64,000 nucleotides of DNA from Anaerolineales bacterium UBA6092 (GTDB taxonomy: Bacteria > Chloroflexota > Anaerolineae > Anaerolineales > UBA4823): positions 40,436-104,435 of the forward strand of contig DIXA01000055.1 in assembly GCA_002428565.1 (NCBI GenBank). The letters run 5' to 3'. The position numbers were made by a program, and so were the translations under genes. This document shows, piece after piece, positions 8,639-63,654 of the stretch. Position 1 is the stretch's first letter. The number at the start of each line of letters is the position of its first letter. A model generated the notes under the pieces. It searched no databases, was not told where the DNA came from, and saw only the letters and a list, made by a program, of their open reading frames with translations.

Positions 8639-8640
8639 AC

Positions 8641-8694: not shown

Positions 8695-8702
8695 TTAGTT
8701 TT

Positions 8703-9557: not shown

Positions 9558-9577
9558 GTTCATGGGAGGATATGAAG

Positions 9578-10465: not shown

Positions 10466-10474
10466 AACCTGACC

Positions 10475-10507: not shown

Positions 10508-10508
10508 C

Positions 10509-10562
10509 TTGCGAAAACAGATGTGCTGCGTGGCAAAGCCACGCAGACATCTGTTTTCGCAA
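10509..10562. terminator. Long hairpin (TTGCGAAAACAGATGTGCTGCGTGGC-AAA-GCCACGCAGACATCTGTTTTCGCAA), probable intrinsic terminator
   Basis: About 25-bp stem with one bulged base. A-tract in the left arm and T-tract in the right arm. Confidence 0.6.
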
Positions 10563-10699
10563 ATATGGGATGGAATATGGAATAAGGTAAGAAATGCCAG
10601 GCTTAAGAAACATTCACGAACGGAGCGGTGCGTTCATGCCGCCAGTGCGGTATAATTCTTCTGCCAAAAATCAAACCTAAACCATCCATAGGAGAACCC

Positions 10700-12076: not shown

Positions 12077-12107
12077 CCGGCCCCAGACAATTGACTTTTT
12101 TATTGGT

Positions 12108-42904: not shown

Positions 42905-44122
42905 TTATTTGATTTTTTCGCTCAAAATCTTGGGGAACAGGGCGTAAAATTCCGTCGCGGCCACCACATCGTCAAGCGGCACCTGCTCGTCATCGCGATG
43001 AGCAAACTTCTCGTCGCCGGGGCCAAACCCAATGCTGGGGATGCCCGCCTTGCCCGCCCAATAGGTGCCGTTGGTGGAGAAGTCCCACTTATCCAGGGAG
43101 CGCTTCTCACCCCATAACGTCTCAACCACGCTCTGCCCCACCTGCACCAAGGGGTGGTCATCTTCCAGCAGCCAGGCCGGGTAATACTTGGCCACCGGGA
43201 AGACGAAGCCGGTGTAGGAGGGCTCATCGTAGAACAACTCTTCCACCTTGATCTCCTCCTGCAGGTAATCGGGGATCAGCCCCTTGATCTGCGCGATGAC
43301 TTCATCATGCGGCTCGTTGGAGGTGATGCGGCGATCAAGGTAGATGGTGAACTGATCGGGCACGGCGTTGAGCGAGGCCGTGCGCACCGAGACATCCGTC
43401 ACAGCAATGGAAGGGTGCCCCTGCACCGGGTGCGACCCCATGCCAAAGCGGAAGCGGCGGTCCAGCTCGCGGATCTGGGTGATGATAGCCATCATCTTAT
43501 ACACGGCGTTATCGCCCAGGTAGTGCGAGGCGGCGTGCGCCGAGCGCCCAGAGGCGGTGATCTTCAACTCGATGCGCCCCTTGTGGCCGCGATCAACGTG
43601 CATCTTGGTCGGCTCGCCAATGACCACATAATCCGGGCGCACTTTGGGATCCACCTCCACAAAGGCGTTGGGAGCAAGGCCGTCACACCACTCTTCCATG
43701 TTGCCAAAGTAGTAGGCGGTGATGCCGTCCAGCCAGCCCAAATCCCTGGCGAACGCCAGCCCATACACCATGCCCGGCGTGGAGCCTTTTTCGTCGCAGG
43801 CGCCGCGCGCATAAAAGATGCCGTTCTCCACCTTGCCAATGAAGGGGTCCCACTGCCAGGTGTCTGGGTCGGCCAGGCCCACCGTGTCGATATGCGAGTC
43901 GTAGACGATGACGCGCTTGCCAGAGCCGATGCGCCCGAGAATATTGCCCATCTTGTCAAAGCGCACTTCGTCAAAGCCCAGCTGGTTCATCTCTGCGGCA
44001 ATGCGCTCGCCCACATCTTTCAACTGCCCCTCCATGCTGGGAATGGCGCAGATGTCGCGCATGAACTGGATGATATTGGCGCGGTTCTCTTCCACTTTTT
44101 GCTTTAGTTTTTGAATTTCCAT
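42905..44122 (-). CDS. YgeY-family M20 peptidase/amidohydrolase
   Basis: 405 aa. FMRDICAIPSMEG, DSHIDTVG, ARGACDEKG, DKWDFSTNG and GIPSIGFGPG match my recollection of E. coli YgeY (DKWTFSTNG, GIPVIGFGPG). Confidence 0.8.
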   Translation of the reverse strand: MEIQKLKQKVEENRANIIQFMRDICAIPSMEGQLKDVGERIAAEMNQLGFDEVRFDKMGNILGRIGSGKRVIVYDSHIDTVGLADPDTWQWDPFIGKVENGIFYARGACDEKGSTPGMVYGLAFARDLGWLDGITAYYFGNMEEWCDGLAPNAFVEVDPKVRPDYVVIGEPTKMHVDRGHKGRIELKITASGRSAHAASHYLGDNAVYKMMAIITQIRELDRRFRFGMGSHPVQGHPSIAVTDVSVRTASLNAVPDQFTIYLDRRITSNEPHDEVIAQIKGLIPDYLQEEIKVEELFYDEPSYTGFVFPVAKYYPAWLLEDDHPLVQVGQSVVETLWGEKRSLDKWDFSTNGTYWAGKAGIPSIGFGPGDEKFAHRDDEQVPLDDVVAATEFYALFPKILSEKIK

Positions 44123-44162
44123 TGCAGATCTCCCATCGAGGTATTTTTAGCCTTGCCCGGCC

Positions 44163-44879
44163 CTAAACCCGCCGGACCACATGGAACCGGAAATAGCCCG
44201 GCAGAAAATAAGAATATGAGTAATCGACCACGCGGCCGTTGCCGGCGTAGAGATAGGCCACAAACCGCAGGAGCACGTCGCCGCGCTGGATATGCATGGC
44301 TCGGGCCACGTCCACCGAAGCCGTGACGGCGTTGATCTCGCAGCGAGAGGAGGCCAACGGCGGATTGCCCTGCTTGAGCAGCAGATCCAGCACCGAGCCG
44401 GTAAAATCCACCTCGAGCGCTTTGGGAGAGAGCACGTCCTCCGGCAGAGTATCCACCAGGTAGGCCGCGGAATGATCCTGGGCCATGATCACGCGCCGCA
44501 CGCAGATCACGCCGCTTTCCAGTTCGATATTCAAAGCCTGGGCTTCTTCTTCCGTGGGGGTGCGGGGGTCAATGTGCAGCTCGCCCAACGAGACGGGCAG
44601 GCCAATGTGCCGGGCCAGCGTTTCGATGCTTTGCAGCACTTCCAGGCCGCTGTCGATCACCTGGGTGGGGTGCGTGACATAGGTGCCAGAACCCTGCCGG
44701 CGGTAGATCATGCCCTGGGTCTCGAAGGCACGCATGGCCTCGCGCAGGGTGGCCCGCGAGACGCTCATGCGGCGGGCCAGTTCTGGCTCGGAGGGCAGGC
44801 GCTCGCCCGGGGCCGAATCGGCGATCAGCCGGGCCAGGTTTTCGTGCAAACGCTGAGAGGTTGAGAGAACGCTCACCAT
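44163..44879 (-). CDS. GntR-family transcriptional regulator (HutC/FarR-type, UTRA effector domain)
   Basis: 238 aa. LPSEPELARRMSVSRATLREAMRAFETQGMIYRRQGSGTYV winged helix, with a UTRA-like C-terminal half. Confidence 0.85.
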   Translation of the reverse strand: MVSVLSTSQRLHENLARLIADSAPGERLPSEPELARRMSVSRATLREAMRAFETQGMIYRRQGSGTYVTHPTQVIDSGLEVLQSIETLARHIGLPVSLGELHIDPRTPTEEEAQALNIELESGVICVRRVIMAQDHSAAYLVDTLPEDVLSPKALEVDFTGSVLDLLLKQGNPPLASSRCEINAVTASVDVARAMHIQRGDVLLRFVAYLYAGNGRVVDYSYSYFLPGYFRFHVVRRV

Positions 44880-44897
44880 GATTGACCGCTGATCGGT

Positions 44898-46691
44898 TCA
44901 GCCCTCCAACACAGGTACGAACGTAAAGCGGGTGGTATCCACCAGCCCCAGGTCTGAGATGCGCAGCTCAGGGATCACCACCAAAGCCAGCAGGCTGAGC
45001 TGCATATTGGGGTTATTCAATGTGCAGCCGCAAGCCCGGAAGCCTTCCAGCACGGTGGCGGCCTTGCCGGCCACGGTCTGAGCGTTTTCGTCAGACATCA
45101 GCCCGGCAATGGGCAGCTGCACCTGGCCGATCACCTGGCCCTGGCGCACCACCACCTGCCCGCCGCCGGCCTTGGCCAGCTCATTGGCAGCCTGGGCCAT
45201 ATCGGCTTCGCTGGTGCCCACCACGATCAGGTGGTGGCTGTCGTGCGCCACGGTGGTGCCGATGGCGCAGGGGACGGTGAAGCCAAAGCCATGCGCCAGT
45301 CCCACCGTCACCTTGCCCGTGCCCTGGTGACGCTCCACCACCGCCAGTTTGACCAGGTCATGCGCTACATCCACGCCCACCTGCCCATCCACAGCCTGCA
45401 CTTCAACGCGTAGATGACGGGTGGGAGCCTGGTTTTCGATCACGCTAATCACGTTGGCGGTTAGTTTGCCATCCCGCGGCGCGGCCAGGCGGAAATCTTC
45501 GGCCGTGAGCGGCTTGCCCAGGTGCACCGAATGCAGCGCCCAATCGGGGTATGGATAGTGCGGCAGGTTGAGCAGCATGCGGCCGTTCTCGGCAGCCAGG
45601 GCGCCGCGGGCAATGACCATCTCTGGCTTGAGGGCGGTCAGGTCACTGAGGATGAGCACGTCGGCATAGCGCCCGGGGGCGATCATGCCCACCTCGCGCG
45701 TGACGCCGAAGTGATCGGCGGTGTTGATCGTGGCCATCTGGATAGCGGTGATGGGCGGCACACCCTGTGCAATGGCCACCCGCACGGCACGGTTGATATG
45801 CCCCTCATTGACCAGCGTCTCAGAGTGCAGGTCATCGGTGCACAGGATCAAGCGCCTCGAGTCCAGGCCCATCTCCGTGATAATACGCACCTGCTCAGCC
45901 ACATCTTTCCAGCCGGAGCCGTAGCGGATCATGGGCTTCATGCCCTGGCGCAGGCGCGCCACGGTATCTTCCAGGCGGGTGCCCTCATGGTCATCTTCCG
46001 CGCCGCCCGCCACGTAGCCGTGGAAGGGCAGGCCCAGGTCGGGGGTGGCGTAATGCCCGCCAATCACCTTGCCCGCGGCGCGCGTCTCGCCCATCTCGGC
46101 GTGCATCTTCTCGTCGCCCAGGAACACGCCGGGGAAGTTCATCACCTCGCCCAGGCCGATGATGCCCGGCCACTGCAGCGCCTCGGCCACTTCTGCCGGG
46201 CCAATGCTCGCTCCGGGCGTCTCCAGCCCAGGGGCGGAGGGCACGCAGGAGGGCACCTGCACCCACACGTGGATCGGCTGGACAGCGGCCTCATCCACCA
46301 TCAGGCGCACGCCGCGCAGCCCAAACACATTGGCAATCTCGTGCGGGTCCACGAACATGCCCGTGGTGCCATGCGGCACGGCAGCACGCACAAACTCCGT
46401 CACCGTCAGCATGCCCGATTCGACGTGCATGTGCCCGTCCAGCAGCCCGGGGCAGAGGTAACGCCCGGCAGCGTCGATCACCTTCGTCTTTTCGCCAATG
46501 GCGTGCGAAGCGTCTGGCCCCACATAGGCGATGCGCTCGCCCAGGATGGCAATATCGGTATGGGGGATGATCTCACCCGATTGCACGCACACCCAGCGGC
46601 CGTCGCGGATCACCAGATCGGCGGGGGCGCGGCCCATGGCCACATCCACCAGGGAGCGAGTCAGCGCAGCATAATCAAATTGGGTCATCAT
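44898..46691 (-). CDS. ade: Adenine deaminase (amidohydrolase superfamily, long AdeC/Ade type)
   Basis: 597 aa. ADLVIRDGRWV, PGLLDGHMHVESGMLT, GHY..., with the C-terminal domain typical of the roughly 600-aa adenine deaminases. Confidence 0.8.
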   Translation of the reverse strand: MMTQFDYAALTRSLVDVAMGRAPADLVIRDGRWVCVQSGEIIPHTDIAILGERIAYVGPDASHAIGEKTKVIDAAGRYLCPGLLDGHMHVESGMLTVTEFVRAAVPHGTTGMFVDPHEIANVFGLRGVRLMVDEAAVQPIHVWVQVPSCVPSAPGLETPGASIGPAEVAEALQWPGIIGLGEVMNFPGVFLGDEKMHAEMGETRAAGKVIGGHYATPDLGLPFHGYVAGGAEDDHEGTRLEDTVARLRQGMKPMIRYGSGWKDVAEQVRIITEMGLDSRRLILCTDDLHSETLVNEGHINRAVRVAIAQGVPPITAIQMATINTADHFGVTREVGMIAPGRYADVLILSDLTALKPEMVIARGALAAENGRMLLNLPHYPYPDWALHSVHLGKPLTAEDFRLAAPRDGKLTANVISVIENQAPTRHLRVEVQAVDGQVGVDVAHDLVKLAVVERHQGTGKVTVGLAHGFGFTVPCAIGTTVAHDSHHLIVVGTSEADMAQAANELAKAGGGQVVVRQGQVIGQVQLPIAGLMSDENAQTVAGKAATVLEGFRACGCTLNNPNMQLSLLALVVIPELRISDLGLVDTTRFTFVPVLEG

Positions 46692-48076
46692 CTCACCTCC
46701 GTTAATCTTCGGGCAGCCCGGTTATGTGCTTCGATCAATCGCGGCAAGTCCACGGTCACAGGCTGGCCTTCCTTCACCACCATCTTGCCGCCCACCACGG
46801 TGTAATCGGCCCGCACCGGGGCGCAGAACACCAGCGCCGCCACAGGGTCATGCAGCGCACCGGCAAAATCCAGCCGGTTCAGGTTCACGGCGAAGAAATC
46901 GGCGCATTTACCCGGCTGCAGCGAGCCCAGGTCCGCGCGCCCCAGCACCGCGGCGCTGCCGCGCGTGGCAATTTCCAGCGCCTGGCGGGCGGTCATCAGG
47001 GGCGGGGCCGCTTCGCCCGAAAGCGAAGCCCCCATCAGCCCAGCGCGCACGCGTGAGGCCAGCATGGCCTGGCGCACTTCCTCCAGCAGGTTCGAGCCGT
47101 CGTTGCTGGCTGAGCCATCCACACCCAGGCCCACTTTGACGCCCGCGGTGAGCATCTCCAGGATGGGGGCAATGCCCGAGGCCAGGCGCATGTTGGAGGT
47201 GGGGCAGTGCGCCACACCGCAGCCTGTGCGGGCATACAGGTCGATCTCTTCCTTGTTCACATGCACAGAATGAGCAAACCACACGTCCGGCCCGATCCAA
47301 TTCACAATATCCATGTATTCCACCGGGCGGTAGCCAAACAACTCCAGGCAGAAGGCTTCTTCATCCTGCGTCTCTGCCAGGTGAGTGTGCAGGCGCACGC
47401 CGTACTCACGCGCCAGCGAAGCGCTGGCGCGCATCAGGTCTGAGGTCACGCTGAAGGGAGAGCAGGGCGCCAGCACAATCTGCAGCATCGATCCGGGGTT
47501 CGGGTCGTGGTACTGCTCGATGAGGCGCTGCGAATCCTTGAGGATGAAGGCCTCATCTTCCACCACATGGTCAGGCGGCAAGCCGCCCTTGCTTTCACCC
47601 CGGCTCATCGAACCGCGCGAGGCGTGCAGGCGCAGGCCCACTTCGCGCGCCGATTCGATCTCGTCATCCAGCCGTGAGTCGTTGGGAAAGATGTACAGGT
47701 GATCCGAGGCGGTGGTGCAGCCCGAAAGAGCCAGCTCCACCAGCGCCGTCTTGGTGGATATGCGGATATCCTCCGGCTGCATGCGCCCCCAGATGGGGTA
47801 AAGCGTTTTCAGCCAGTTGAACAGGTTGGCATCCTGCGCCGCGGGCACCGCCCGCGTCAGCGTCTGGTAGAAGTGGTGATGGGTATTGATCAGCCCGGGC
47901 AAGAGCACATGCCCGCGCAGGTCCAGCACCTCATCGGCCTGGGCGGGCAGGTCCACGCTCGGGCCAACCTGCTCGATCATGCCATCGCATACAAAAAGAC
48001 CACCGCCGGGGATTTCTCGGCGCTGGTCATCCATGGTCACTAACACATCGGCGTTACGGACAAGGAGAGTTTTCAT
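46688..48076 (-). CDS. 8-oxoguanine-deaminase-like amidohydrolase (TRZ/ATZ / SsnA-related)
   Basis: ATG at 48076 (MKTLLVRNADVLVTMDD). The track ORF's N-terminal extension is rejected. LINTHHHFYQTLTR metal-binding motif, HLAET, VGLGVDGSASND. The stop overlaps the ade start (ATGA). Confidence 0.75.
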   Translation of the reverse strand: MKTLLVRNADVLVTMDDQRREIPGGGLFVCDGMIEQVGPSVDLPAQADEVLDLRGHVLLPGLINTHHHFYQTLTRAVPAAQDANLFNWLKTLYPIWGRMQPEDIRISTKTALVELALSGCTTASDHLYIFPNDSRLDDEIESAREVGLRLHASRGSMSRGESKGGLPPDHVVEDEAFILKDSQRLIEQYHDPNPGSMLQIVLAPCSPFSVTSDLMRASASLAREYGVRLHTHLAETQDEEAFCLELFGYRPVEYMDIVNWIGPDVWFAHSVHVNKEEIDLYARTGCGVAHCPTSNMRLASGIAPILEMLTAGVKVGLGVDGSASNDGSNLLEEVRQAMLASRVRAGLMGASLSGEAAPPLMTARQALEIATRGSAAVLGRADLGSLQPGKCADFFAVNLNRLDFAGALHDPVAALVFCAPVRADYTVVGGKMVVKEGQPVTVDLPRLIEAHNRAARRLTEVR

Positions 48077-48121
48077 CGGCTGTCGCTTTCTGGCAAGCCA
48101 TTGGTTTTTTGGGGGGACGAA

Positions 48122-48132
48122 TTGTCTGACAA
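48122..48132. promoter_or_regulatory. Candidate GntR-type operator O1, palindrome TTGTC-N-GACAA, just downstream of the putative -10
   Basis: TTGTCTGACAA read directly. Same palindrome as at 48167-48177. Confidence 0.45.
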
Positions 48133-48137
48133 GCGAT

Positions 48138-48166
48138 AGTTTAACAAAAAAAAGCGCAGATGTCAA
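48138..48166 (-). promoter_or_regulatory. Candidate promoter of the purine-catabolic block (minus strand: TTGACA, 17-nt spacer, TAAACT)
   Basis: Plus-strand TGTCAA at 48161-48166 and AGTTTA at 48138-48143, about 60 nt upstream of ATG 48076. Confidence 0.45.
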
Positions 48167-48189
48167 TTGTCAGACAATTGACATCTGCG
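48146..48189 (-). terminator. Intrinsic terminator after folD (15-bp stem CGCAGATGTCAATTG/CAATTGACATCTGCG, then T8 on the minus strand)
   Basis: Stem at 48155-48169 / 48175-48189. The A8 run at 48146-48153 gives U8 on the minus-strand transcript. Confidence 0.65.
48164..48180. promoter_or_regulatory. Candidate GntR-type operator O2, 17-bp palindrome CAATTGTC-A-GACAATTG abutting/overlapping the -35
   Basis: Read directly. The core TTGTCAGACAA is the reverse complement of O1. Confidence 0.45.
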
Positions 48190-48198
48190 AAATTATCT

Positions 48199-48239
48199 GT
48201 GGTGTTGGTTTTGCGGGCAATGTCCGCAAAACCAACACC
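48199..48239 (-). terminator. First hairpin after the folD stop (17-bp perfect stem TGGTGTTGGTTTTGCGG/CCGCAAAACCAACACCA)
   Basis: Read directly, 18 nt after the folD stop (48258). Confidence 0.5.
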
Positions 48240-48257
48240 ACAAAAATTAATGCCCGC

Positions 48258-49139
48258 CTAGATCTTGTTTTGGATCTTGGCGGCGCGCACGGTGTTGGAA
48301 AGCAGCTTGGCAATGGTCATCGGCCCGACCCCGCCGGGCACCGGGGTGATCCACCCCGCCACTTCTTTGGCCTCCTCGTAAGCCACATCGCCGGTCAGGC
48401 GGTAGCCCTTCTCGCGGGTGGCATCGTCAACGTGATTGATGCCCACATCGATCACCACTGCGCCGGGCTTGATCCAATCGCCGCGCACCATCTCAGCCCG
48501 CCCCACCGCGGCAATCAGCACATCGGCCTGGCGGCAGATGCCGGGCAGGTCCTTCGAGCGCGAGTGGCAGATGGTCACCGTGGCATCGCGCTTGAGCAGC
48601 AACAGCGCCACCGGCATGCCCACAATGTTCGAGCGGCCCAGCACCACAGCGTTGGCGCCCTTGAGCGGGTAGCCGATCTGGTCGATCAAATAGATACAGC
48701 CATCCGGCGTGCAGGGCACAAAGAGCGGCTCGCGGCCTTTCTGCGCCAACCGGCCAATATTCAAGGGGTGGAAGCCATCCACGTCCTTCTCGATGCTGAT
48801 GGCGCCGAGCACCCGCTCCTCATCCAGGCCGGCGGGCAGGGGCAGCTGCACCAGGATGCCGTTCACCTTGGGATCGGCGTTGAGTTCCTGCACGAGGGTC
48901 TCGACCTGCGCCTGCGTGGCATCGGCGGGCAGGCTGTAGCCATACGAGGCCATACCGGCTTTCTCGCAGGCTTTGCCTTTACTGCGCACATATGTCTGCG
49001 AGGCCGGGTTATCCCCCACCAGAACGGTTGCCAACCCCGGCTTGGGGAGGCCGGCCTCGACCATCTTGACCACATCTGCAGCCACTTCTTCGCGCAGCCG
49101 GGCCGCAATGGCTGTACCATCAATGATTTGTGCCGTCAT
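48258..49139 (-). CDS. folD: Bifunctional methylenetetrahydrofolate dehydrogenase (NADP+) / methenyl-THF cyclohydrolase
   Basis: 293 aa. [61 protein letters not shown]. Confidence 0.9.
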
Positions 49140-49203
49140 AGTTCTCTCCTTGGGGGCAATTATCCCACATTTTGCATCTCATCATAACATAACAAGAACG
49201 GGG

Positions 49204-49248
49204 TTTGGGGTGTGAACGGGCGGCTTCGCCGCCCGTTCACACCCCAAA
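49204..49248. terminator. Long perfect hairpin (about 21-bp stem TTTGGGGTGTGAACGGGCGGC/GCCGCCCGTTCACACCCCAAA)
   Basis: Read directly. Partner of the GC hairpin at 49258-49281, downstream of the minus-strand gene 49315-50325. Confidence 0.55.
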
Positions 49249-49257
49249 TTCTTCTTA

Positions 49258-49281
49258 TTTCCCCGCCCTGGGGCGGGGAAA
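49258..49281. repeat. C4GC4-type GC hairpin, copy 4 (TTTCCCCGCC-CTGG-GGCGGGGAAA)
   Basis: Read directly. Confidence 0.7.
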
Positions 49282-49314
49282 GCAGAGCTTAACGGCTTTG
49301 TTAAGGCCCTACTT

Positions 49315-50325
49315 TTACGGCGCGGGCCGCGGCTCCAGCAGAGCCAGGTCGCGCAGCAGGGCGTCCAGAGTTTCCAGGGCGCTGAAGTTGCGGGCATCCC
49401 AGGCGTCGGGAATCAGGTAGATGTTATCCTCGTCCAGGCCGTGGTTGGGCAGGTACTGTACCGCCAGCCAGGCATTGTAAAGCGGCACATCTTCTTCGTA
49501 GGCAATCCGGGCGATGGACTCATTCAGGGCGTAATCCTGCTCGATGTTATCGGCCTTGGTCACCAGGATGGGCACGACGCCGTGCTCAAGCGAATACGTC
49601 ACGATCTGGCGCAGATATTTCTCAAAGGAGAGCGAGGCGTTAGGCACCCAGTTGGTGCCCATTGCAATGAAGGCGAAGGCTGGCTGGCGCAGGCGGAACT
49701 CGCATTCGAGGGGGGTTTCAGACCCATCGCACAGCTCGGGGTCGGAGAGCAGCGGCGAAAAAACGGAGGCAACCCCAAACCCGTCTTTGGCTGCCACGCT
49801 CTCCACCAGGAACGACGGGCGGAACCACTCGACGGTCTGCTCCAGGTACATGGTGTTTGCGCTGAAATAGTAGCGCTCGGTGCCATAGATGCCCAGGAAG
49901 ACATCGGGAACGCTCTGGCAGTCGCCGATGCGCGTGAAGACGTGGGTGTCGGCGCCGAGGGTTTGGCCCAGCTCGAAGGCGGTGCGGGCGCGGCCGGTGA
50001 GGGCCGGCACGATCGGCCATTGGCGCCAGTAGCGAGGCAGGAGGCGGGTGTCGGGAGTAGGCGTCAGCGTTGGCCCAACCGGGGTGGCGGTCGGCGGGAC
50101 TGTGGTCGAGGTGGGTGGGGGCAAGGGCTGCTGCGTCTCAGGGAGTGCGGTTGGAGAATCCTGGGCTCCGGCTGTCTGGCTGGCCTGCGGGGTGAGCGAG
50201 GGCTCCATGCTGGGAGAGGGGAAGGCAGTGACTCCCGCCGCGCTTGGAACAGCCTGGGGAGTGGCGGTACAGGCGGCGAGCAGGGCAAGCAAGAAAAGGG
50301 CAAGCAAGAAGGAAAGTGGTTTCAT
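49315..50325 (-). CDS. Lipoprotein with a Pro/Thr-rich linker and a possible SGNH/GDSL-like hydrolase domain
   Basis: 336 aa. Lipobox LLAAC. FTRIGDCQS (block-I-like, but with Cys at the usual Ser position) and AMGTNW (block-III-like). The assignment is tentative. 20 nt downstream of the SGNH gene. Confidence 0.5.
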   Translation of the reverse strand: MKPLSFLLALFLLALLAACTATPQAVPSAAGVTAFPSPSMEPSLTPQASQTAGAQDSPTALPETQQPLPPPTSTTVPPTATPVGPTLTPTPDTRLLPRYWRQWPIVPALTGRARTAFELGQTLGADTHVFTRIGDCQSVPDVFLGIYGTERYYFSANTMYLEQTVEWFRPSFLVESVAAKDGFGVASVFSPLLSDPELCDGSETPLECEFRLRQPAFAFIAMGTNWVPNASLSFEKYLRQIVTYSLEHGVVPILVTKADNIEQDYALNESIARIAYEEDVPLYNAWLAVQYLPNHGLDEDNIYLIPDAWDARNFSALETLDALLRDLALLEPRPAP

Positions 50326-50345
50326 GGTTATGGTTCGGATACGCT

Positions 50346-51467
50346 TTACTTAAGGATCGATTCTACGGCCCGGGCAACGGCCTCAGCCAAAAGCTCTTCA
50401 CCGGCGGGGGTCAGGTGGATGGCCTGGTTGGTAAATTCAGCCGCGGGCACGAGGTCCCAGGCATCGAGATAAGCCCAGCCGCCAGACTGGCTGGCCTGCG
50501 CCAGGGCCTGGCGATAGGCGTCGTAAGCCCAGCGCGGGTAGAAGAAATTGTAACGGATATCGCTGTTTTGTCCATCGCTGATAAAGATTGGCTCGTTGAC
50601 CACCAGCACCGGGGTGCCGCCCACCCGAGCAAACCCGGCATTAAAAACATCCCAGGCCAGGGAGTTACTAGAACCAAAGGTCTCGGGGGTAAGATCGTGA
50701 AAGGAGGCATCCGGCTCGAAATCGCTTTGGGGCGGGCCGTACTCGGCAGGGTAGGCCTGGTCCACGCCGGTGGCGGCCCACAGCGCACCGTACAGCTGCA
50801 GGCGCAGCAGGTCTGCCAGGGGGCGGCGCTGCCCGAGGAGGGTGCGGCTGTAGAAGGTGGGGCGCTCCAGGCCGGGGTCATTCAGATCCAGGTTGAGTTG
50901 GCATTGCGAGACCAGGGTCTGCAAGCGCGGCAGGTTGTGCTGGACAAGCGGGGAACTGAGCTGCTTGGAGCCCGGGAACGATTCGAGCGTAACCAGCCAG
51001 ATGACCAGGTCGGGCTGGTAGCGCATGGCCTCGTCGAGGAACAGCAGGTCTTTGGTAAGCGAGAGGGTGGGGTAACCCAGGTTGTAGAAGCGCACGCGCT
51101 GCCCCCCCACGGTGACGATTTGGCGGGCGTTCAGCCGGGCGGCGAGGGTATCTTCGGGACGCAGCAAAAAGCCCCAGGTGGACGAATCGCCGATCAGTAT
51201 GACACGGTATTCCTCCGCTTCGGCTGGGGCGGCAATCTCGTGCGAGGCGAACATGGCCTCCAACGAGAACAGGCTCAGGTTGAAGGCCCGGGCGGGGTCG
51301 TCGCCGTAGGGGAAACGCTCCCGCCCCGGGAACAGCCAGTTATAGGCTGAAACCCGGCCCAGGGCAGGGGTAGGGTTCAGCACGGCAAACAGCAGGTTGG
51401 CTAGGATGAACAAGACGGCGGCCTTAGCGAGCAGCCGGGGGAGGTTGAGGGCGGGGTTCTGGTTCAT
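50346..51467 (-). CDS. Membrane-anchored SGNH/GDSL-like acyl-transfer protein (DltD/AlgJ/PatB-like partner of the MBOAT)
   Basis: ATG at 51467 overlaps the MBOAT stop (ATGA). N-terminal TM segment AAVLFILANLLFAVL. Block I VILIGDSSTWG. The track ORF's 410-codon upstream extension overlaps the MBOAT gene out of frame and is rejected. Confidence 0.7.
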   Translation of the reverse strand: MNQNPALNLPRLLAKAAVLFILANLLFAVLNPTPALGRVSAYNWLFPGRERFPYGDDPARAFNLSLFSLEAMFASHEIAAPAEAEEYRVILIGDSSTWGFLLRPEDTLAARLNARQIVTVGGQRVRFYNLGYPTLSLTKDLLFLDEAMRYQPDLVIWLVTLESFPGSKQLSSPLVQHNLPRLQTLVSQCQLNLDLNDPGLERPTFYSRTLLGQRRPLADLLRLQLYGALWAATGVDQAYPAEYGPPQSDFEPDASFHDLTPETFGSSNSLAWDVFNAGFARVGGTPVLVVNEPIFISDGQNSDIRYNFFYPRWAYDAYRQALAQASQSGGWAYLDAWDLVPAAEFTNQAIHLTPAGEELLAEAVARAVESILK

Positions 51468-52981
51468 CTGATCCATCCGAAGAGGGCAGCGAAGGTGCGC
51501 AGTGCCAGGGCGGGATCGGGCAAGGCGAACCAGACCCAGCCCAGGGAGACGAACTGAAAGGTGAGCAGTACGCTGCCCCACTCCAGGGCCTGTTTGAGGC
51601 GCGGCCGAGAGGCCAGCCCCGCCGAACGGGGGCGCATCCAGTTGATCCAGCGGTTGTGGACGAACAGGCCCAGCCCGTGCCAGGCGCCCCAGATGGCAAA
51701 GTTCCAGGTGACGCCGTGCCACAGACCAATCAGCAGCATGGTGGTGACCTGGACGAAAAACAGGATCAGATCGGCAGAGATGGGCCGCGGGCGCGAGCGC
51801 AAGGCACGCGTGAGCGGGTTGAAGTAATAGGCACGGAACCACTGCGCCAGGGTGATGTGCCAGGAGTTCCAGAAGGCGGTCAGGTTGGGCTTGAGGTAGG
51901 GGCGGTCGAAGTTCTCGGGCAGGCGGATGCCGGCCAACAGCCCCAGGCCAATGGCCAGGTCGGTGTAGCCCGAAAAGTCGAAGTAGATGCGCCAGGAGAA
52001 GGCGTACAGCAGCACCCAACCCCACAGCGGGCGGTCGATTTGCCCGGCGTTGGCAGCGCTGAGGGCGATCAGGGCCAGGCTGTCCGCCAGGACGAATTTC
52101 TTGAACAGGCCCAGGGCCAGGCGGCTGCCGCCCGAGAGCAGGCTGCTCTGGTTGAGCGTAAAATCGCGGTTCAGGTCGCCCACAAAGCGCGGCAGGCGGT
52201 CGATCGGCCCGGCGGTATAGGCGGGAAAGAAAAAGGCGTAGATCATGAAATCCTGCAGGGGTACGGCGGGCAAGCGCCCGGCGGCGTGATCTCTCAAGAT
52301 GTGCAGCAGGCGAAAGGCCAGGTACGAGAAGCCCAGCCAGCGCAGGTCGAGGGCGGCGGCGGTAGCCGTGCTCTGCCCGGACAAGGCGCGCAAGGCGGTG
52401 GCAGCAGCCAGGGCCAGGGAGGGAGTTTTCAAAACCACCAGCAGGGCGATCAGCAGAAAACCAGCCGCACCGACAAAAAACGGCTGACCCAGGCGGCGCC
52501 TGGCGACAAAGACCAGCCCGGCAGCGGCAGCCAGGGCCAGCAGCACCTGACCGATCTCGGGGGGTCTGGAGGGGGTGAGGCAGCAGACGGGGCCCAGGTA
52601 GCGTGTCAGGGCCACACCCAACACGAGGGCGGCAACCAGGGCGGCGGCGGGCAGGTCGGGGCGCAGGCTGGTATCCGCCGGGCGGGCGGCAGCCCACACC
52701 ACCACGGCGAGTGTCAGGGCGGCGGTGGCGAGCCAGAAGTCCAGGTGGCGGATGGGCAGCAGCGGCTGCAGCCAGTAGACGGCGAGCACGCTGGCAGACA
52801 GCAGCAGCGCTTTGCGCAGAGCGGGGCGGCGCACGAGGCTGACCAGCACGAGGGCGAGGGCAAAGACGAGCAGGTGAAGGAGAGTCAAGGTTTTGGCGGC
52901 GGCGGGGGCTAGAAGCCCTGGTAGATCCACTCGGGCGACAGGCTGGCAGTGGCGATGAGCAGGGCGATGACCAGCAAGCAC
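51464..52981 (-). CDS. MBOAT-family membrane-bound O-acyltransferase (AlgI/DltB/PatA-like)
   Basis: Polytopic. LGFSYLAFRLLHILRD, FSWRIYFDFSGYTDLAIG, and the conserved His region LIGLWHGVTWNFAIWGAWHG. The start is uncertain: the track start at 52981 would overlap the small upstream ORF by 73 nt, and TTG at 52888 (MTLLHLLVFALAL...) is a plausible alternative. Confidence 0.8.
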   Translation of the reverse strand: MLAGHRPAHRHCQPVARVDLPGLLAPAAAKTLTLLHLLVFALALVLVSLVRRPALRKALLLSASVLAVYWLQPLLPIRHLDFWLATAALTLAVVVWAAARPADTSLRPDLPAAALVAALVLGVALTRYLGPVCCLTPSRPPEIGQVLLALAAAAGLVFVARRRLGQPFFVGAAGFLLIALLVVLKTPSLALAAATALRALSGQSTATAAALDLRWLGFSYLAFRLLHILRDHAAGRLPAVPLQDFMIYAFFFPAYTAGPIDRLPRFVGDLNRDFTLNQSSLLSGGSRLALGLFKKFVLADSLALIALSAANAGQIDRPLWGWVLLYAFSWRIYFDFSGYTDLAIGLGLLAGIRLPENFDRPYLKPNLTAFWNSWHITLAQWFRAYYFNPLTRALRSRPRPISADLILFFVQVTTMLLIGLWHGVTWNFAIWGAWHGLGLFVHNRWINWMRPRSAGLASRPRLKQALEWGSVLLTFQFVSLGWVWFALPDPALALRTFAALFGWIR

Positions 52982-53031
52982 AATGCCAGGGCGAGGAAAT
53001 TTTCGCGGGAGAGGAGTTTGCGCAGGAACAT
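52909..53031 (-). CDS. DltX-like 40-aa single-pass membrane peptide ending in W-I-Y-Q-G-F
   Basis: ATG at 53031. MFLRKLLSRENFLALALCLLVIALLIATASLSPEWIYQGF-stop. One TM helix, with the aromatic-x-Tyr-x-x-Phe motif at the extreme C-terminus, immediately upstream of the MBOAT gene. Confidence 0.6.
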   Translation of the reverse strand: MFLRKLLSRENFLALALCLLVIALLIATASLSPEWIYQGF

Positions 53032-53080
53032 AGAGAGGCTCAGTTTGGTAGTGTCCAACACGGGGTAACCCGGATCATCT

Positions 53081-53485
53081 TTATTTATACCCGCACATGC
53101 GCCACTGCCCGTCTTCCTGGGTGACGCGGTAGGTCTGGCGATCGACGGAGAATTCCTGGTTTTCGCCATTGTAGCTGGCGACGATCTTGCCGGTGCAGTC
53201 TACCAACTGGTCTGCGCCATCTGTGCCGCTGGTCGCACAGGACAGGTCCTGGGTCTGGATGTTGACGCCGGTGAACCCGTCCAGCTCGACCAGGGCCGAT
53301 TCTTCCCAGGCCTTACAGACCGTCTCTGAAAGCTGGGCGGCGTCCTTGGCGACCAGGGCCTGGATGTAATTCACCACCGCCTGTGCCGGAGCGTCGGCTT
53401 CAGCCTCAGATTGGCAGGCTGTTAGAAATACCAGGGATAGGGCCATCAGTAAGATAAATCCTTTGATTCTTCGATCCATGTGCAT
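53081..53485 (-). CDS. Small lipoprotein, hypothetical
   Basis: ATG at 53485 or 53479 (MHMDRRIKGFILLMALSLVFLTAC). Lipobox LTAC. The track ORF's upstream extension is rejected. Confidence 0.6.
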   Translation of the reverse strand: MHMDRRIKGFILLMALSLVFLTACQSEAEADAPAQAVVNYIQALVAKDAAQLSETVCKAWEESALVELDGFTGVNIQTQDLSCATSGTDGADQLVDCTGKIVASYNGENQEFSVDRQTYRVTQEDGQWRMCGYK

Positions 53486-53504
53486 GCGCTCCAGGAAACG
53501 TAAA

Positions 53505-54881
53505 TTAGGGGGGATAGACCCACAACATGAGTTCGGGCGGGGGCGGAGGCCAGATAAAGTAGACCGTGGAATACTGGTGCCAGGAGACATATTCAGCCTG
53601 GGTGTAGCCCAAATCGATCCAGCGCGGGGTGATGTTGCCGGTGTCGGCGGCCTCGGCGTATCCGTAACCGGGAACGTACATCATGGTACCGTAAGGGATG
53701 TATTGCGGGAGCACGCCGACCAGGCCCTTGCGCACGCGCTGCCCGCTGGCAGTGATAGTGCCATATTTGTCGTTGTAGCTGGTGATCCACATGGTCAGGG
53801 CGCGCCAGTAGTAAATGGTGCCGTCGGCGGTCTCGACCGAGCGCATAACAATGTTGGTGCCGTAGCCAATGATGCGCTCTTGCGGGGTGCGTGCCTGCCA
53901 CTGGTCTTCCAGCGTGCGCGCAACTTCCACGCCGTCTTCGTAACGCAGGCGCAACCGCTGGGCGGTCAGGCCGTATTCGCCGGTCTGGATCACGCTCTGG
54001 GTATCAAGATCCATATCAGCAACCGCCTGGTACACCGTTTCAAATTCCAGCGGGGTTTGTTCAATGATCACTTCCTCACGCACGCGCACCAGGCGAATGA
54101 GGCCATCCTCAGGCAGGGGCGCATCCGCGGCAGGCAGGCTGTAATCCAACCCTTGCAGGGCCAGCCCCGCTTGCGCCAGCGCCTCGCCCACGGTGGCGCC
54201 AGCAGTGCGCAGGGTCAGCGCGCCCGCCTGGGTCTGCACGGTTACCAGGCGGGAACGTTCCAGCCGGGCTTGCAGGCCGATGGTCAGCGGTGCGCCGGGC
54301 GGGGGGGTCAGGCGATCGGCGGCGTAGAGCAAGATGCCGTTTTCCCACAACGCCTGCCCCAGGCTGGAGGCCGAGGAGCGCAGAGCCAGGCTCGCACCGT
54401 TCTCCTCGAGCGTGAAAGGCACATCTCGCTGCACCTGCAAGGAGAGGCTGTTCTGCCAGTAGGGCAGCGCCTGGGTCGGGTTGACCGGCTGGCCCAGCCA
54501 AAGCAGCTGGTCAGCGGGGTTGAGCGTAAGGCCAGATAGGGCTAACAGGTTGATAGGCAGGCGCTCTGGAGAAACCAGGTTGTACATCTGTCCATCGGCC
54601 TGGATCTGCACTGCCGCGGCCCGCTCCAGGGTCACCTGTGCGCCATGCGCCAGCCAGGCATCTCCGGGCGGGGTGAGGCGGTCTTGCGCGCCGAGGGGGA
54701 CACCCGCCGAGCGCAGCAGATCGTTGACGGTGATGGCGTAAACGGTGTACGGCTGGCTCTGCCCATCGACCACCAGGGTGACGCTTTTATGCAGGGCCAG
54801 GTTCAGCAATGCCGCCACGCCTACCAGCACCGCCAGAAGCGGGAAAAGGAACTCGCGGAGCAATCTGGGTTTCACCGTCAT
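53505..54881 (-). CDS. RpfB/YabE-like cell-wall protein: N-terminal anchor, DUF348 repeats, G5 domain, C-terminal 3D domain
   Basis: 458 aa. Repeated V/T-L-xxDG...Y segments (DUF348-like), a G5-like region (EEVIIEQTPLEFETVY...) and a 3D-domain end (ITASGQRVRKGLVGV...YGYAEAADTG). Confidence 0.75.
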   Translation of the reverse strand: MTVKPRLLREFLFPLLAVLVGVAALLNLALHKSVTLVVDGQSQPYTVYAITVNDLLRSAGVPLGAQDRLTPPGDAWLAHGAQVTLERAAAVQIQADGQMYNLVSPERLPINLLALSGLTLNPADQLLWLGQPVNPTQALPYWQNSLSLQVQRDVPFTLEENGASLALRSSASSLGQALWENGILLYAADRLTPPPGAPLTIGLQARLERSRLVTVQTQAGALTLRTAGATVGEALAQAGLALQGLDYSLPAADAPLPEDGLIRLVRVREEVIIEQTPLEFETVYQAVADMDLDTQSVIQTGEYGLTAQRLRLRYEDGVEVARTLEDQWQARTPQERIIGYGTNIVMRSVETADGTIYYWRALTMWITSYNDKYGTITASGQRVRKGLVGVLPQYIPYGTMMYVPGYGYAEAADTGNITPRWIDLGYTQAEYVSWHQYSTVYFIWPPPPPELMLWVYPP

Positions 54882-54920
54882 ATCTCTCCTTGGGGCTATT
54901 ATCCCACAATTTAAGGGGAA

Positions 54921-54961
54921 TCAAGGGTTCGCAGCGGGCGAAGCCCACTGCGAACCCTTGA
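54921..54961 (-). terminator. Hairpin after the 1823-aa gene (TCAAGGGTTCGCAG-[GGGC-GAA-GCCC]-CTGCGAACCCTTGA)
   Basis: 14-bp outer stem plus a 4-bp inner stem, read directly. The downstream U-tract is weak. Confidence 0.45.
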
Positions 54962-54985
54962 TCATATATCTCGTTTCGATTTCAG

Positions 54986-57900
54986 CTATCGAGGCAGCCG
55001 GCGCCGCCCCATCACAAAGCGCAGCGCCAGGGCCACGCCGATGAGCAAACCTACCACCAGCACACTGACCCAGCCGCTGACGCCGGGCTGCCCCGTCGCA
55101 GTAAAGCTGCTAAGGATCACTGCCGTGGGGCTGGTGTTCAGTGTTACCGAAGCATTGTTATTGCTCGACACCGCATCAGTGATGCCCGAGGGCGTCGTAA
55201 CGGTCACCAGATAGTCCAGGGTAACTCCCGGATAATTGGGCGGCAGCCTGCCCACCACGGTCATAACCAGTATATCGCCCGTTAAGAAGGTCACCCCACT
55301 CCACTCATTGGTATCCGGGTCATAACTGCCCACGCCAGGCAGATAAACCGCCGTACCCGCCAGCATCTGGGTGGGCAGCACATCCGAAAAGAAGAAAGAC
55401 GTCATGCCGGTGGAGCCGTTATTGACAATGGTGATGGTATACGTGATCACCTGGTCATTCTGCACCCCGGTCACGCCAATGCCCAGGTCAGCCAGGCGAG
55501 CGGGCGTGTTGGAATCGCTGGCGGTGTTGTCGCTCATGTCAGTCTCGGAGGCCTGCCCGGAACTGACGCTGGCGGTGTTGTCAAGCGTGCCGTCAAACAA
55601 CGGGTCGATCAGCCCGGTGATCTCGAGCGTCAGGCTGCCGCCTGAGGCCAACGAGATCTCCGTCCACGCGCCGGTGAGCGGATCATAGCTGCCCGCGCTG
55701 GGCGTGTACACCGGCGAGAGCAGGGCGCTGGGCAGCCCATCGATGAGGGTCAGGCTGGTGAGGGTGCGCGGCCCGTTGTTGCTCACCGTGAGCGTGTAGG
55801 TCAGATCCTCGCCAACGGTCCCCGGGTTCGGAGAGCTGGATTTGGTCAGGGTCAGGTCTACCAGCGGCAGGTCGAAAGCCGTTCCGCTGGAGGTCGTATA
55901 GGGGGCGACGCTGTATGCGTTGGTGTAACTGGCCGAGGCCGTATTCGCCACCAGGTTCGCATCAGACGGCAAGACGGTGATGGTCAGCGTATCCGCGGCG
56001 GTGCAGCCAGCGCCATCGCGAGCACGCACCACGGCCGTGTAAACGCCGGGGTTGTTATAGGTGTACGTGGCCGTGGCTGTGGTCGAGTAATCCTGCGGCG
56101 TGCCCTCGCCAAACTCAAAGCGGTAGTTCAACGCCCCTTGCCCCACCAACGCCTGCGGGTTGGCGCTAAAGGATACCATTTGCCCGGCCAGGATGACCGT
56201 GTTGGCCTGGGCAAATGGCTGGTAACTGCTCCATTCCAGGCTCAGGTTATACAGCAAGCCCACGTGGTCCAGCCCGCCGTAGACAGCATGCCCGCCATGG
56301 CGGTTGTTGAGCAAGCGCACCGCCAACAGATTCGGCCCAGGCTGGGCAGCGCCGCTTCCGTTGAAATGGGTCGAGCCGCCGCCGCCCACCTGGTTACCCA
56401 AGAAAGCGCCATTCAGATAGATATCGGACACATCGTCGCCGGCCAGGTTAAGGCTGGCGGTCAGACCCGCAGCGTTGAGCGGCAGGCAGACCGATTGACG
56501 GAAGAAGGTGTAATTGGGGTCGATCTGTCCAGAAGCATTCACTGCTACCCACTCAGCCGTCAGGGCGGTGGGGGTTAACCAGTAGCTCTCAAAGTAAGAC
56601 GCCACCGTCGCGCTCCATGCAGCGCCAAACGCTCCTGCCACCGGGTTGGCCTGCCAGCCGGCAGGTCCCACCGGATCGGTGTCGTTCCATAGACCCCTTA
56701 AGCTGGCTGCGCCCACCGTGGAGGTGATCACCAGGCTGCCGCCGCCGCTTTGAGGGGCGTAGGTTGGCGTGGAGGTAGAGCCCCCCCCTGCTGTGTCGCT
56801 CAGATCCATCTGGAAGGTGAGTGTGCCGCTGCCGCCTGGGGGTACAGTGCCAATAATCCACGTCACGGTGCCGCCACTTTCGCTACAACTCGTCCCGCCT
56901 GCGCAACTCGCCTCAACGTAGCTGGTGCCGCCGGGTAGGCTGTCATTGACAACAACGTTCTGCGCTTCGGCTGCGGATGGATTGCTATAGCTCAAGGTGA
57001 CAAGTACTGGGCTGTCCAGGCGAGCCGGACCGCTGACTGTCTTGCTCAGCACCAGGTCGGGTCGGATGGTGATATCGCTGTCGCTGGCAGTGTTGTTCGA
57101 GAGATCCTGGTCGGTTCCGTGCGTGCCATCGTCCGTGATCGCAGCAGTAGCGGCCAGCACGGTCGCTGGATTCACCGCTGGATCCACCTGGGCGGTAAAG
57201 CTGAGCGCCCCAGACGCTCCAGGGACGAGCGTTGCCAGCGCCGGGGTAGTAGTCGAATCCCAGGTGATGGTTCTGGTTCCCGGATCATACACACCGCCGT
57301 CAGACGGGGTGATATCGGTCAACCCCTCTGGAACCTGCACCGTGACAATGTTGGTGGTGGCATCGGCGTTGCCGATATTGGCATAGGTCAGGTTGTAGGT
57401 CAAAGGCTGCCCTGCCAGCACCTGAGTTTGCCCATCGGTGATCGTCACCTTCAGGTCAGGAGCGGAAAGGATGGCATCGATATCCGAGTTTTCATTATCG
57501 GTCAGGTCGCTTTCGGGGGTGGTCGTGGTCACATAGGCATAGTTTGAAACGCTCCCCGATGAAGCCGTGACCAGGGCCGAAAGGGTGAGCGTTATGCTGT
57601 CGCCGGGAGCCAGCGACTCAGTCAGCGTCCAGATCACATCCTGACCACTGACCAAACAGGGGGTTGGCAAGCAGGAGTTATCGTTATAGCTCAGGCCGAG
57701 AGAAAGCGTGTCGTAGATCGTCAGGTTTTCGGCCGCCAGGCCGCCCGTGTTCTGGATGATGATCGTGTACACCAGCGTCGCCCCGTTCGTGGTTGTGGTC
57801 TGACCATCCGATTTGAACAGCACCAGATCGGCGTTGTTCAGTTCCAGGTCTTGTATGTTGGCCCTACCCGAGATGACGTCTGTGGTAATGCTATCGGTCG

Positions 57901-60457: not shown

Positions 60458-60679
60458 GTAAACTCCTATTCTTGGGCTTACTGCGAATGAGTAACGATAC
60501 TATTACCAGTCAGGTTGCCTGAGTCAAATATTAATTTTTTTTCCCACCACATGCTGGTTAACATGTTCATTGTAACCTAATAATACCGCTTTAGGTATAC
60601 ACTTATGAAAGGTGGGAGCGCTCAAAGGCTGATTGGTTTGATCCCCAAATTCGATTACAATAGCACCTTGAGAGGACCT

Positions 60680-60931
60680 ATGGACACTATCCAAGAAACC
60701 CTGGCAACCTTCATCGCCACGCATATCCTGCACAAACCGGGGCGGACCATTGACCCCGCCGAGAAACTCATTTCCAGCGGGCTGATCGACTCGTTCAATC
60801 TGGTTGACCTGGCGATCCACATTGAGGAAAAACTCGGCGTGCAGATCGATGATACCGAGCTGACCGCCACAACCTTCGACACACTGGCTGAACTGGCTGA
60901 ACTGATCCGCCAGCGCCAGGGCGCACAATGA
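60680..60931 (+). CDS. Acyl/aminoacyl carrier protein, DltC-like (phosphopantetheine attachment site)
   Basis: ATG at 60680 with GAGAGGA upstream. 83 aa. SSGLIDSFNLVDLAIHIEEKLG resembles the DltC EGLLDSFGTVELL serine motif. The stop overlaps the next ATG (ATGA at 60928-60931). Confidence 0.75.
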   Translation: MDTIQETLATFIATHILHKPGRTIDPAEKLISSGLIDSFNLVDLAIHIEEKLGVQIDDTELTATTFDTLAELAELIRQRQGAQ

Positions 60932-61211
60932 CCACCCTGCCCCAACGGTTGTACGAAATCTACCAAAGCCAGCCGGAAAGCCCGGCAGTACGCCTGCTGT
61001 ACAATGCTCAACCAGACCAGGCGCTGACATGCCGCGACCTGCTGCTCGGCTCCGCAGGCTATGCGCAGGCACTGGCCCAGGCTGGCATCCAGCCGGGCGA
61101 AGTGGTCATCTGGTTAAGTTAGTGGAGAGGGGCTGGCTGCTGAAGACCAGCAGCGGCAAGGTGGCGCGCAGCGCCAACCGCGAGAAATACCTGAGCGAGC
61201 CTCAGGGCTGA
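60928..61211 (+). pseudogene. Remnant of an AMP-dependent synthetase/ligase (adenylating enzyme) with a large internal deletion
   Basis: The 64-aa N-terminal piece (…ALTCRDLLLGSAGYAQALAQAGIQPGEVVI) ends at the stop at 61120-61122. A typical ligase C-terminal tail (…LLKTSSGKVARSANREKYL) follows at once in another frame and ends at 61211. The roughly 450 codons expected in between are absent. Confidence 0.7.
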
Positions 61212-63388: not shown

Positions 63389-63654
63389 GGTTGGTATATA
63401 TTATACGTGAAGCGTGAACGTTTTCCCATACAATTTCGGCTCACTTTTAACATTGGTTGGCATTTTCTGCGCAACAGTGAACCGTTTCTTTGTATCGTCA
63501 GCGCTCACGCTTCACTACAAGACCTTCTGTGTCGGTTTCGAACGATTTCAGGTACAGGATGCTAAGAACCGATCCGGAAATTGGGGGCGAGGCGGGTGTT
63601 TGGCAGGGCCATGCCCCGCCAAACACCCACACCCTTGTCATTTTCGGATAGCTA

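Follow-up and report, generated by a model that had tools for sequence, protein, structure and literature searches.

A number of reports describe bacterial pathways in which an acyltransferase of the MBOAT family is paired with an SGNH protein, and in which the acyl group is shuttled as an ester on the tyrosine of a short hexapeptide. In the Dlt pathway of Firmicutes, whose components are DltX, DltA, DltB, DltC and DltD in the account of Schultz, Snow and Walker (2023) that PMC12148441 summarises, this motif, FXYXXF, lies at the C-terminus of the microprotein DltX (PMC12148441); DltX of L. plantarum ends in NQAKFIYNEF (PMC13653941). In the non-Dlt pathways of bacteria, such as PatA/PatB, AlgI/J/F/X, WssH/I and PatA1B1, there is no DltX-like microprotein and neither a carrier nor a ligase, the motif being fused instead to the MBOAT on two extra transmembrane (TM) helices (PMC12148441). 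In this study, we have analysed a stretch of 64,000 nt (the window, to which all coordinates refer) from Anaerolineales bacterium UBA6092 (assembly GCA_002428565.1, contig DIXA01000055.1), in which a 40-codon open reading frame (ORF) precedes an MBOAT gene. By analogy with Dlt, we consider it likely that this ORF encodes a DltX-type acyl-shuttle microprotein, belonging to an Anaerolineae (Chloroflexota) cassette that also includes a ligase of the fatty acyl-AMP ligase (FAAL) type.

The microprotein and its C-terminal motif

The microprotein gene lies on the minus strand (52909–53031, with its ATG at 53031 and its stop at 52909). The 40-residue product (MFLRKLLSRENFLALALCLLVIALLIATASLSPEWIYQGF, then the stop) has a basic N-terminus, an 18-residue hydrophobic stretch, with one predicted TM helix, and the hexapeptide WIYQGF at its exact C-terminus, closing the segment SPEWIYQGF. 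The hexapeptide is of the form aromatic-I-Y-x-x-F, which fits the FXYXXF-type shuttle motif with W for the first F, and by analogy with DltX we propose that the C-terminus is extracytoplasmic and that Tyr37 would be the acyl acceptor. When the sequence was re-read, this ORF and all the other features listed in a first-pass annotation of the window were found where that annotation had placed them.

The distribution of the microprotein was followed in 80 related loci, the top 80 among the 593 stretches of the genome collection that were confirmed to encode an MBOAT, which were fetched from GTDB species-representative genomes with an alignment of 20 MBOAT homologues (4,492 MBOAT relatives were scored). 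Nearly all of these loci are from metagenome-assembled genomes (MAGs) of Anaerolineae, Anaerolineales, Thermoflexales or Aggregatilineales, to which Leptolinea tardivitalis is added. A small ORF ending in WIYQGF (WIYQTF in one case) stands directly upstream of the MBOAT gene in 70 loci, and in two more a different cassette gene intervenes and the microprotein is found some 1.2 kb upstream, which gives 72 copies in the 80 loci; a further four are uninformative in this respect, being interrupted by stretches of N or by the end of the contig. Among the 72 copies, the W, I, Y, Q and F of the hexapeptide are never replaced and the G only once (71/72), and the codons vary synonymously (ATT/ATC/ATA, TAC/TAT, CAG/CAA, the four GGN codons and TTC/TTT). 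For the last eight codons, the synonymous measure pS is 0.87 and the non-synonymous measure pN is 0.07, and over 34 codons of the microprotein pN/pS is 0.36. Judged from these codons, WIYQGF is under strong purifying selection, and the 40-codon ORF is a genuine gene. The first-pass annotation had singled out this ORF, with its single TM helix and its WIYQGF end, and had suggested looking for the ORF and its terminal motif in related genomes; with a near-invariant hexapeptide in 72 of the 80 loci, its view of a real microprotein has held.

The family extends further in the databases. A profile of the microprotein, compared with 1.84 billion representative proteins, matched 194 clusters (defined at 50% identity) at E <= 1e-3, 116 of them at E <= 1e-10. 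Among the best 150 of these 194, nearly all the matches reach the last residue of the protein, and the hexapeptide is also found as WLYQGF, FIYEGF, FLYEGF and WIYQGY; Firmicute-type DltX is absent from the 30 matches inspected out of these best 150. A sequence search of the PDB with the microprotein gave no meaningful match. All the named database copies are called 'hypothetical protein' and none carries a Pfam domain. The earlier remark that small ORFs of this kind are usually missed by gene callers holds in part only, as such copies are in the databases and the JGI annotation did call the ORF of the window, as a protein of 50 residues from GTG 53061 (L081, 9870–10022). The alignment of homologues favours ATG 53031 as the start.

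A second conserved patch, R-E-N-x-x-A, is seen at the cytoplasmic end of the helix (R9-E10-N11, 53004–53012; A14, 52990–52992), with E and N in 71 of the 72 copies and A in all of them. Contact with the MBOAT or with the carrier is a possible role for it; in the literature consulted on DltX (PMC12148441, PMC13653941) we found no mention of such a patch.

The acyltransferase, the carrier and the ligase

Twenty nucleotides separate the stop codon of the microprotein from the start of the MBOAT gene (51464–52888, minus strand), which encodes 474 residues from a TTG codon; in many loci the microprotein stop abuts or overlaps the MBOAT start. The protein matches PF03062 (E = 5.6e-17), and the conserved His region pointed out in the first-pass annotation is borne out by the alignment of the 20 homologues, in which His344 (WNSWH) and His391 (GLWHG) are invariant. 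The two segments align with WNRWH and GFWHG of DltB. In the PDB the MBOAT profile matches DltB only (6BUG/8JEM, 4e-57), the alignment extending to residue 404 of the 425-residue DltB chain. All 20 aligned proteins end in KLFGxx, without a Tyr motif, and the window copy ends in ALFGWIR. Since there is no fused Tyr motif and the structural matches are to DltB only, the MBOAT is, from its alignments, of the DltB type in its architecture, and not of the PatA/AlgI type. Within the collection, a sub-family of Thermoflexus-like MBOATs (L035, L046, L053 and L068) has the N-terminus MTLTHILVF.

When the proteins of the window are compared with the 80 loci by tblastn, the usual order of the genes, on one strand, is lipoprotein 1, microprotein, MBOAT, SGNH protein, lipoprotein 2, carrier and ligase. 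Full flanks, of 5.5 kb or more to either side, are available for 48 loci. Of these, 34 have a carrier gene at a distance of no more than 6 kb, which in 33 cases stands downstream and in the same orientation, and 33 have a ligase gene within that distance. The cassette, carrier and ligase included, recurs in L082 (FIYEGF) and L084, two loci that were reached through divergent peptides. The claim that the module has no ligase or carrier attached, and is decoupled from DltA/DltC, has therefore been abandoned, as the operon of the relatives has both and the window itself has a carrier gene and a truncated ligase gene.

The carrier of the window (60680–60931, plus strand) is a stand-alone phosphopantetheine carrier protein of 83 residues, which contains LISSGLIDSFNLVDL, with the DSF serine motif, and matches PF00550 at 6.6e-8. 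Its gene is displaced from the cassette by 7.7 kb, on the opposite strand and past a gene for a CLIPPER-repeat protein. Compared with the DltC models, whose cut-offs are 52–68 bits, the carrier scores 21–25 bits, lower than with several acyl carrier protein (ACP) families.

In the case of the ligase, the full-length proteins of the relatives (556–573 residues) match the fatty acyl-AMP ligase family NF006624 at 7e-110, and in NCBIfam they also match the FadD32 and FAAL21/28 families. Their best PDB matches are the E. coli FAAL 3PBK (5e-71), Legionella 3KXW, FadD32 and FAAL domains that load polyketide synthases (PKS), and they show the motifs YHDMGL and GRKKDLIIVGGKN. DltA is absent among the best 25 of 106 NCBIfam matches and the best 60 of 133 PDB matches. 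By family assignment, then, the cassette ligase is of the FAAL type and not a DltA, so that D-alanine is probably not the acyl group, for which a fatty acid or some other non-amino acid is more likely. At the level of the family, sequence comparison describes a carrier-dependent pathway with the logic of Dlt and an activating enzyme of the FAAL type.

Two of the loci call for a separate description. In L. tardivitalis YMTK-2 (L051) the microprotein and MBOAT genes are present, but the roughly 6 kb that follow gave no sign of an SGNH, carrier or ligase gene; from its ORFs, the region directly after the MBOAT (7475–12700 of that locus) appears to be a mobile or defence island, with a protein of 286 residues, one of 1038 residues resembling a restriction-modification enzyme, and a ParA-like protein. 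Locus L043, with a complete cassette, is on a contig binned as a MAG of a Methanosarcinales archaeon; because it is closely similar to the Anaerolineae loci, its archaeal placement is likely to be due to mis-binning.

The SGNH protein, the lipoproteins and the surroundings of the cassette

The MBOAT gene and the gene for the SGNH protein are joined by an ATGA overlap. This protein (50346–51467, minus strand, 373 residues), which we regard as a putative analogue of DltD, has an N-terminal TM helix, the block VILIGDSSTWG and, in the alignment, invariant G93-D94-S95 and His351. Its AlphaFold2 (AF2) model has a pLDDT of 77, and the Foldseek search returns SGNH esterases at E ~1e-4; the earlier description of a membrane-anchored GDS protein is thus upheld by the SGNH fold, the anchor and the invariant Ser and His. 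In the Foldseek results DltD (6O93) comes first by query TM-score, with 0.40, and only at rank 20 by E-value; in Pfam and NCBIfam the protein has no DltD match. The gene was found by tblastn in 70 of the 80 loci. In L035 and L046 the adjoining SGNH protein starts with WLYAP ahead of its TM helix.

Lipoprotein 2 (49315–50325, minus strand, 336 residues) follows after 20 nt and is present in 51 of the 80 loci (tblastn). The window copy contains RIGDCQS and MGTNW, and in the alignment of the family block I is an invariant Gly-Asp-Cys, as opposed to the Gly-Asp-Ser of GDSL enzymes, in which blocks III and V read GxND and DxxH; going by block I, a Cys nucleophile is possible in the family. Matches to Lipase_GDSL_2 are found in 8 of 13 homologues (best 8.7e-9), the window copy itself has no Pfam match, and the profile reaches E. 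coli TAP at E = 0.006. By alignment and profiles, lipoprotein 2 appears to belong to a GDSL-like family, which agrees with its earlier designation as a second SGNH-like partner; hhalign detects no relationship between it and the SGNH protein, and its single-sequence AF2 model is uninformative (pLDDT 41.5). The block-V His found in most homologues is replaced by Tyr in the window copy. A sub-clade that includes this copy has the same Tyr, and is also devoid of the block-III Asp.

Lipoprotein 1 (53081–53485, minus strand, about 132–134 residues) is encoded directly upstream of the microprotein gene, and has the lipobox Cys and four more invariant Cys. Its profile gives weak matches to DUF4440, SnoaL_3 and Rv0361-like (NTF2-like) families in Pfam and no match in the PDB, which makes it probably an NTF2-like protein. 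The gene was found in 57 of the 80 loci (tblastn), and its dN/dS compared with L086, a close relative, is 0.046, the lowest among the genes compared.

Further upstream, and co-directional with the cassette, is a gene for an RpfB/YabE-like protein (53505–54881, minus strand), with three DUF348 domains, a G5 domain and a weak 3D match in Pfam. The first-pass annotation had placed the module in a peptidoglycan-related context, and both this gene and the small lipoprotein gene do lie upstream of it; the RpfB-like gene, however, adjoins the cassette in only 4 of the 80 loci, plus L086, and is not a conserved member of it. With so few cases, this adjacency is hardly a guide to the acceptor, and the implied acylation of peptidoglycan has been dropped. 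At the other end, between lipoprotein 2 and folD, there is a perfect GC-rich inverted repeat of 20 bp with a 3-nt loop (49205–49247), a hairpin that may mark the operon end as a terminator or may be a repeat element. A promoter scan was uninformative, with a single match, the same as the random expectation.

Between the RpfB-like and the carrier genes lies a gene for a CLIPPER/DUF11-repeat surface protein of 1823 residues (54986–60457). The carrier gene overlaps by ATGA the N-terminal ORF of the ligase remnant (60928–61211, plus strand), which was delimited by tblastn of a full-length ligase. In this remnant, residues 1–61 of the ligase (60928–61110) are joined out of frame to residues ~530–559 (61110–61199), the second frame encoding the ligase C-terminus (WLLKTSSGKVARSANREKY). 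In L086, a carrier gene and a full-length ligase gene are placed divergently right beside the RpfB-like gene, and the CLIPPER gene is absent from the locus. The nucleotide identity of L086 to the window is about 88–93% over 42927–54959 and 83–86% over 61122–63540, and the segment in between, 54960–61110, has no nucleotide match in L086. The two carriers share 63% of their amino acids, compared with 87–97% for the neighbouring genes. The composition profile of 54960–61110 gives an unremarkable GC content and no sign of foreign origin. The arrangement in the window could reflect a real insertion or replacement together with a ligase deletion, or it could be an assembly chimera. With the carrier gene set apart and only a remnant of the ligase, the pathway on this contig would depend on another loading enzyme or be impaired, unless the contig is chimeric at this point. 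L086 itself has many split genes (RpfB, FolD, amidohydrolases) and one fused MBOAT+SGNH call; these are typical of long-read indel errors, and apparent gene fusions and fragmentations in that locus are untrustworthy.

A candidate acyl relay and its alternatives

The cassette shares with Dlt a free, single-pass microprotein of about 40–50 residues with a C-terminal aromatic-I-Y-x-x-F, an MBOAT resembling DltB that has no fused motif, an SGNH partner with a TM anchor, and a dedicated carrier that is predicted to be loaded by an adenylating ligase. It differs from Dlt in the class of this ligase, in the failure of the peptide, the SGNH protein and the carrier to match Dlt family models, in the order of the genes, (lipoprotein)-X-B-D-(lipoprotein)-C-A versus X-A-B-C-D, in the addition of two conserved lipoproteins, and in its host, which is Chloroflexota. 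On sequence grounds the cassette would work like Dlt in its logic, and falls outside the DltX model and the DltC and DltA families. In common with PatA/PatB, the AlgI type and related systems it has the MBOAT–SGNH pair and the Tyr-ester shuttle hexapeptide, whereas it has its motif on a free peptide and includes a carrier and a ligase. The known FAAL–ACP modules (3PBK/3KXW, FadD32, lipopeptide starters) resemble it in the end-to-end alignment of the FAAL and in the adjacent small carrier, but they feed PKS or non-ribosomal peptide synthetases, or cytoplasmic lipid synthesis, and we found no paper in which a FAAL–ACP pair feeds a trans-membrane relay of MBOAT and SGNH proteins. The eukaryotic MBOATs HHAT, PORCN and GOAT use acyl-CoA donors and acylate proteins directly, with neither a Tyr shuttle nor an SGNH partner; if the acyl group of the cassette is a fatty acid, the likeness would be that an MBOAT brings about fatty acylation of a substrate outside the cytoplasm. 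The literature search, outside which Schultz 2023 itself lay, gave no link between MBOAT, FAAL and ACP and no description of the cassette in Chloroflexota; no mention of MBOAT was found among the listed papers on Anaerolineae or Chloroflexota, and the combination of DltB and Chloroflexi gave only an unrelated review.

The present analysis establishes the reality of the gene, its conservation, the family assignments and the synteny. Every chemical step of the relay is inferred from the published biochemistry of Dlt and PatAB (PMC12148441, PMC13653941). By this analogy, the ligase would adenylate a carboxylic acid and load it on the holo-carrier, the most likely candidates being fatty acids or other acids that are not amino acids. 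The acyl-carrier would then dock at the cytoplasmic face of the MBOAT. The MBOAT His would move the acyl group to Tyr37, at the extracytoplasmic C-terminus of the microprotein, from which Ser95 of the SGNH protein would accept it and pass it to an acceptor in the envelope. Accessory roles, such as binding, editing or de-acylation, might fall to the two lipoproteins. The shuttle reading is supported by conservation, by the identity of the motif, by the type of partners and by gene coupling, and so the idea of a free Tyr-shuttle peptide acting outside the Firmicutes, already put forward in the first-pass annotation, has gained ground. The fuller proposition, that Anaerolineae and related Chloroflexota acylate an extracytoplasmic polymer or protein of the envelope with a fatty (or other non-amino) acid, by means of a FAAL-loaded carrier, a DltB-like MBOAT, a free Tyr-shuttle peptide and an SGNH transferase, is advanced only tentatively, as one that may well turn out otherwise.

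Several observations weigh against a DltX-type shuttle. The microprotein has no match at E <= 1 in Pfam, DltX PF12459 included, or in NCBIfam, and homology to DltX therefore has to be argued from motif, size, topology and partners; of the family models named for the module at first pass, the MBOAT model was matched, whereas those for DltX and DltD were not. The only NCBIfam match of the MBOAT, TIGR04091 LTA_dltB (1.3e-58), scores 199 bits against a cut-off of 375, and the ligase reaches 368 bits with NF006624, below the cut-off of 600. The carrier gives weak matches to several ACP families and to DltC in NCBIfam, all below cut-off. By the E-values of its modelled structure, the SGNH protein is no closer to DltD than to generic SGNH esterases. 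In 14 of the 48 full-flank loci there is no carrier within 6 kb, and in the window the ligase is a remnant in which about 468 codons are missing by comparison with a full-length ligase. Four of the 80 loci, those of the Thermoflexus-like sub-family, have no microprotein within 6 kb, where neither a fused nor a relocated Tyr motif was found. Finally, a long acyl chain may or may not fit through a tunnel of the DltB type.

How far other explanations account for the data can be judged from the same evidence. On one reading the 40-codon frame arose by chance, or is simply the beginning of the MBOAT frame, and is no gene in its own right; in favour of this one could invoke that JGI calls the MBOAT from GTG 52930, overlapping the last 22 nt of the microprotein, and that a Shine-Dalgarno is not evident upstream of ATG 53031. 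The amino-acid conservation in 72 loci with synonymous codon turnover, the 194 protein clusters, and the alignment of the 20 MBOAT homologues from MTLLxxL, which is TTG 52888 in the window, refute a spurious ORF and leave this explanation with next to no probability. The MBOAT start alignment also gives no support to GTG 52930 or GTG 52981 as the start of the MBOAT, the latter having been named in the first-pass annotation as a weak point of the microprotein. An orthodox Dlt pathway, D-alanylating a teichoic-acid-like polymer and merely too divergent for the DltX, DltD and DltA models, would share the X-B-D-C-A logic, and is consistent with DltB as the sole family match of the MBOAT, with the weak DltC match of the carrier and with a C-terminal motif near FIYNEF. 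We hold it to be very improbable, considering the clear FAAL type of the ligase, with no DltA among the matches inspected, the several ACP families that the carrier scores above DltC, the different gene order and the two extra lipoproteins.

The cassette might alternatively be a module for O-acetylation fed by acyl-CoA, as in PatAB or AlgI, that has its Tyr motif on a separate peptide and for which the carrier and the ligase are unrelated neighbours. This would explain why the peptide, MBOAT and SGNH genes of the window are intact and under purifying selection next to a non-functional ligase, and it would fit the 14 full-flank loci that have no nearby carrier. On the other hand, some 70% of the full-flank loci have carrier and ligase behind the cassette in the same orientation, with stop and start codons that often overlap, the MBOAT resembles DltB, which is of the carrier-dependent type, and the published acyl-CoA-dependent MBOATs of bacteria have a fused motif (PMC12148441); we therefore regard this alternative as unlikely. 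There is, in addition, a limited though real chance that the window holds a decaying relic, or that the contig is chimeric at about 54960–61110, in which case the local arrangement would be uninformative on function. The frame shift of the ligase and its lost codons point that way, as do the unmatched segment in the ~90%-identical L086, the low identity of the carrier compared with its neighbours, and the missing block-V His of lipoprotein 2. The six minus-strand ORFs of the cassette region are nevertheless intact, with dN/dS of 0.05–0.39 versus L086, the carrier keeps its DSF serine motif, and the GC content of the segment is unremarkable.

Taken as a DltX-type microprotein, the product of the small ORF would add a second lineage, phylogenetically far from the first, in which the shuttle peptide is free, as compared with the view of the literature, in which such a peptide belongs to Dlt only (PMC12148441). 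The cassette is common, as judged from the 194 peptide clusters, the 4,492 scored MBOAT relatives and the 593 confirmed MBOAT-encoding stretches, and it has few cultured hosts, L. tardivitalis, with the peptide and the MBOAT, being one of them. Since DltX-type peptides escape the existing models, a search anchored on the motif would probably find more. The combination of a free peptide with a different class of activating enzyme suggests that the Tyr-ester relay may extend beyond D-alanine and acetate, and, if the proposed mechanism is true, the cassette would be a bacterial, carrier-fed counterpart of the lipidation carried out by eukaryotic MBOATs. It would also suggest a rule by which MBOATs fed by carrier proteins keep the Tyr shuttle separate, whereas those fed by acyl-CoA fuse it. 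For the Chloroflexota themselves, a major but poorly understood phylum of the environment in which the chemistry of the cell envelope has hardly been charted, the cassette points to a modification of that envelope.

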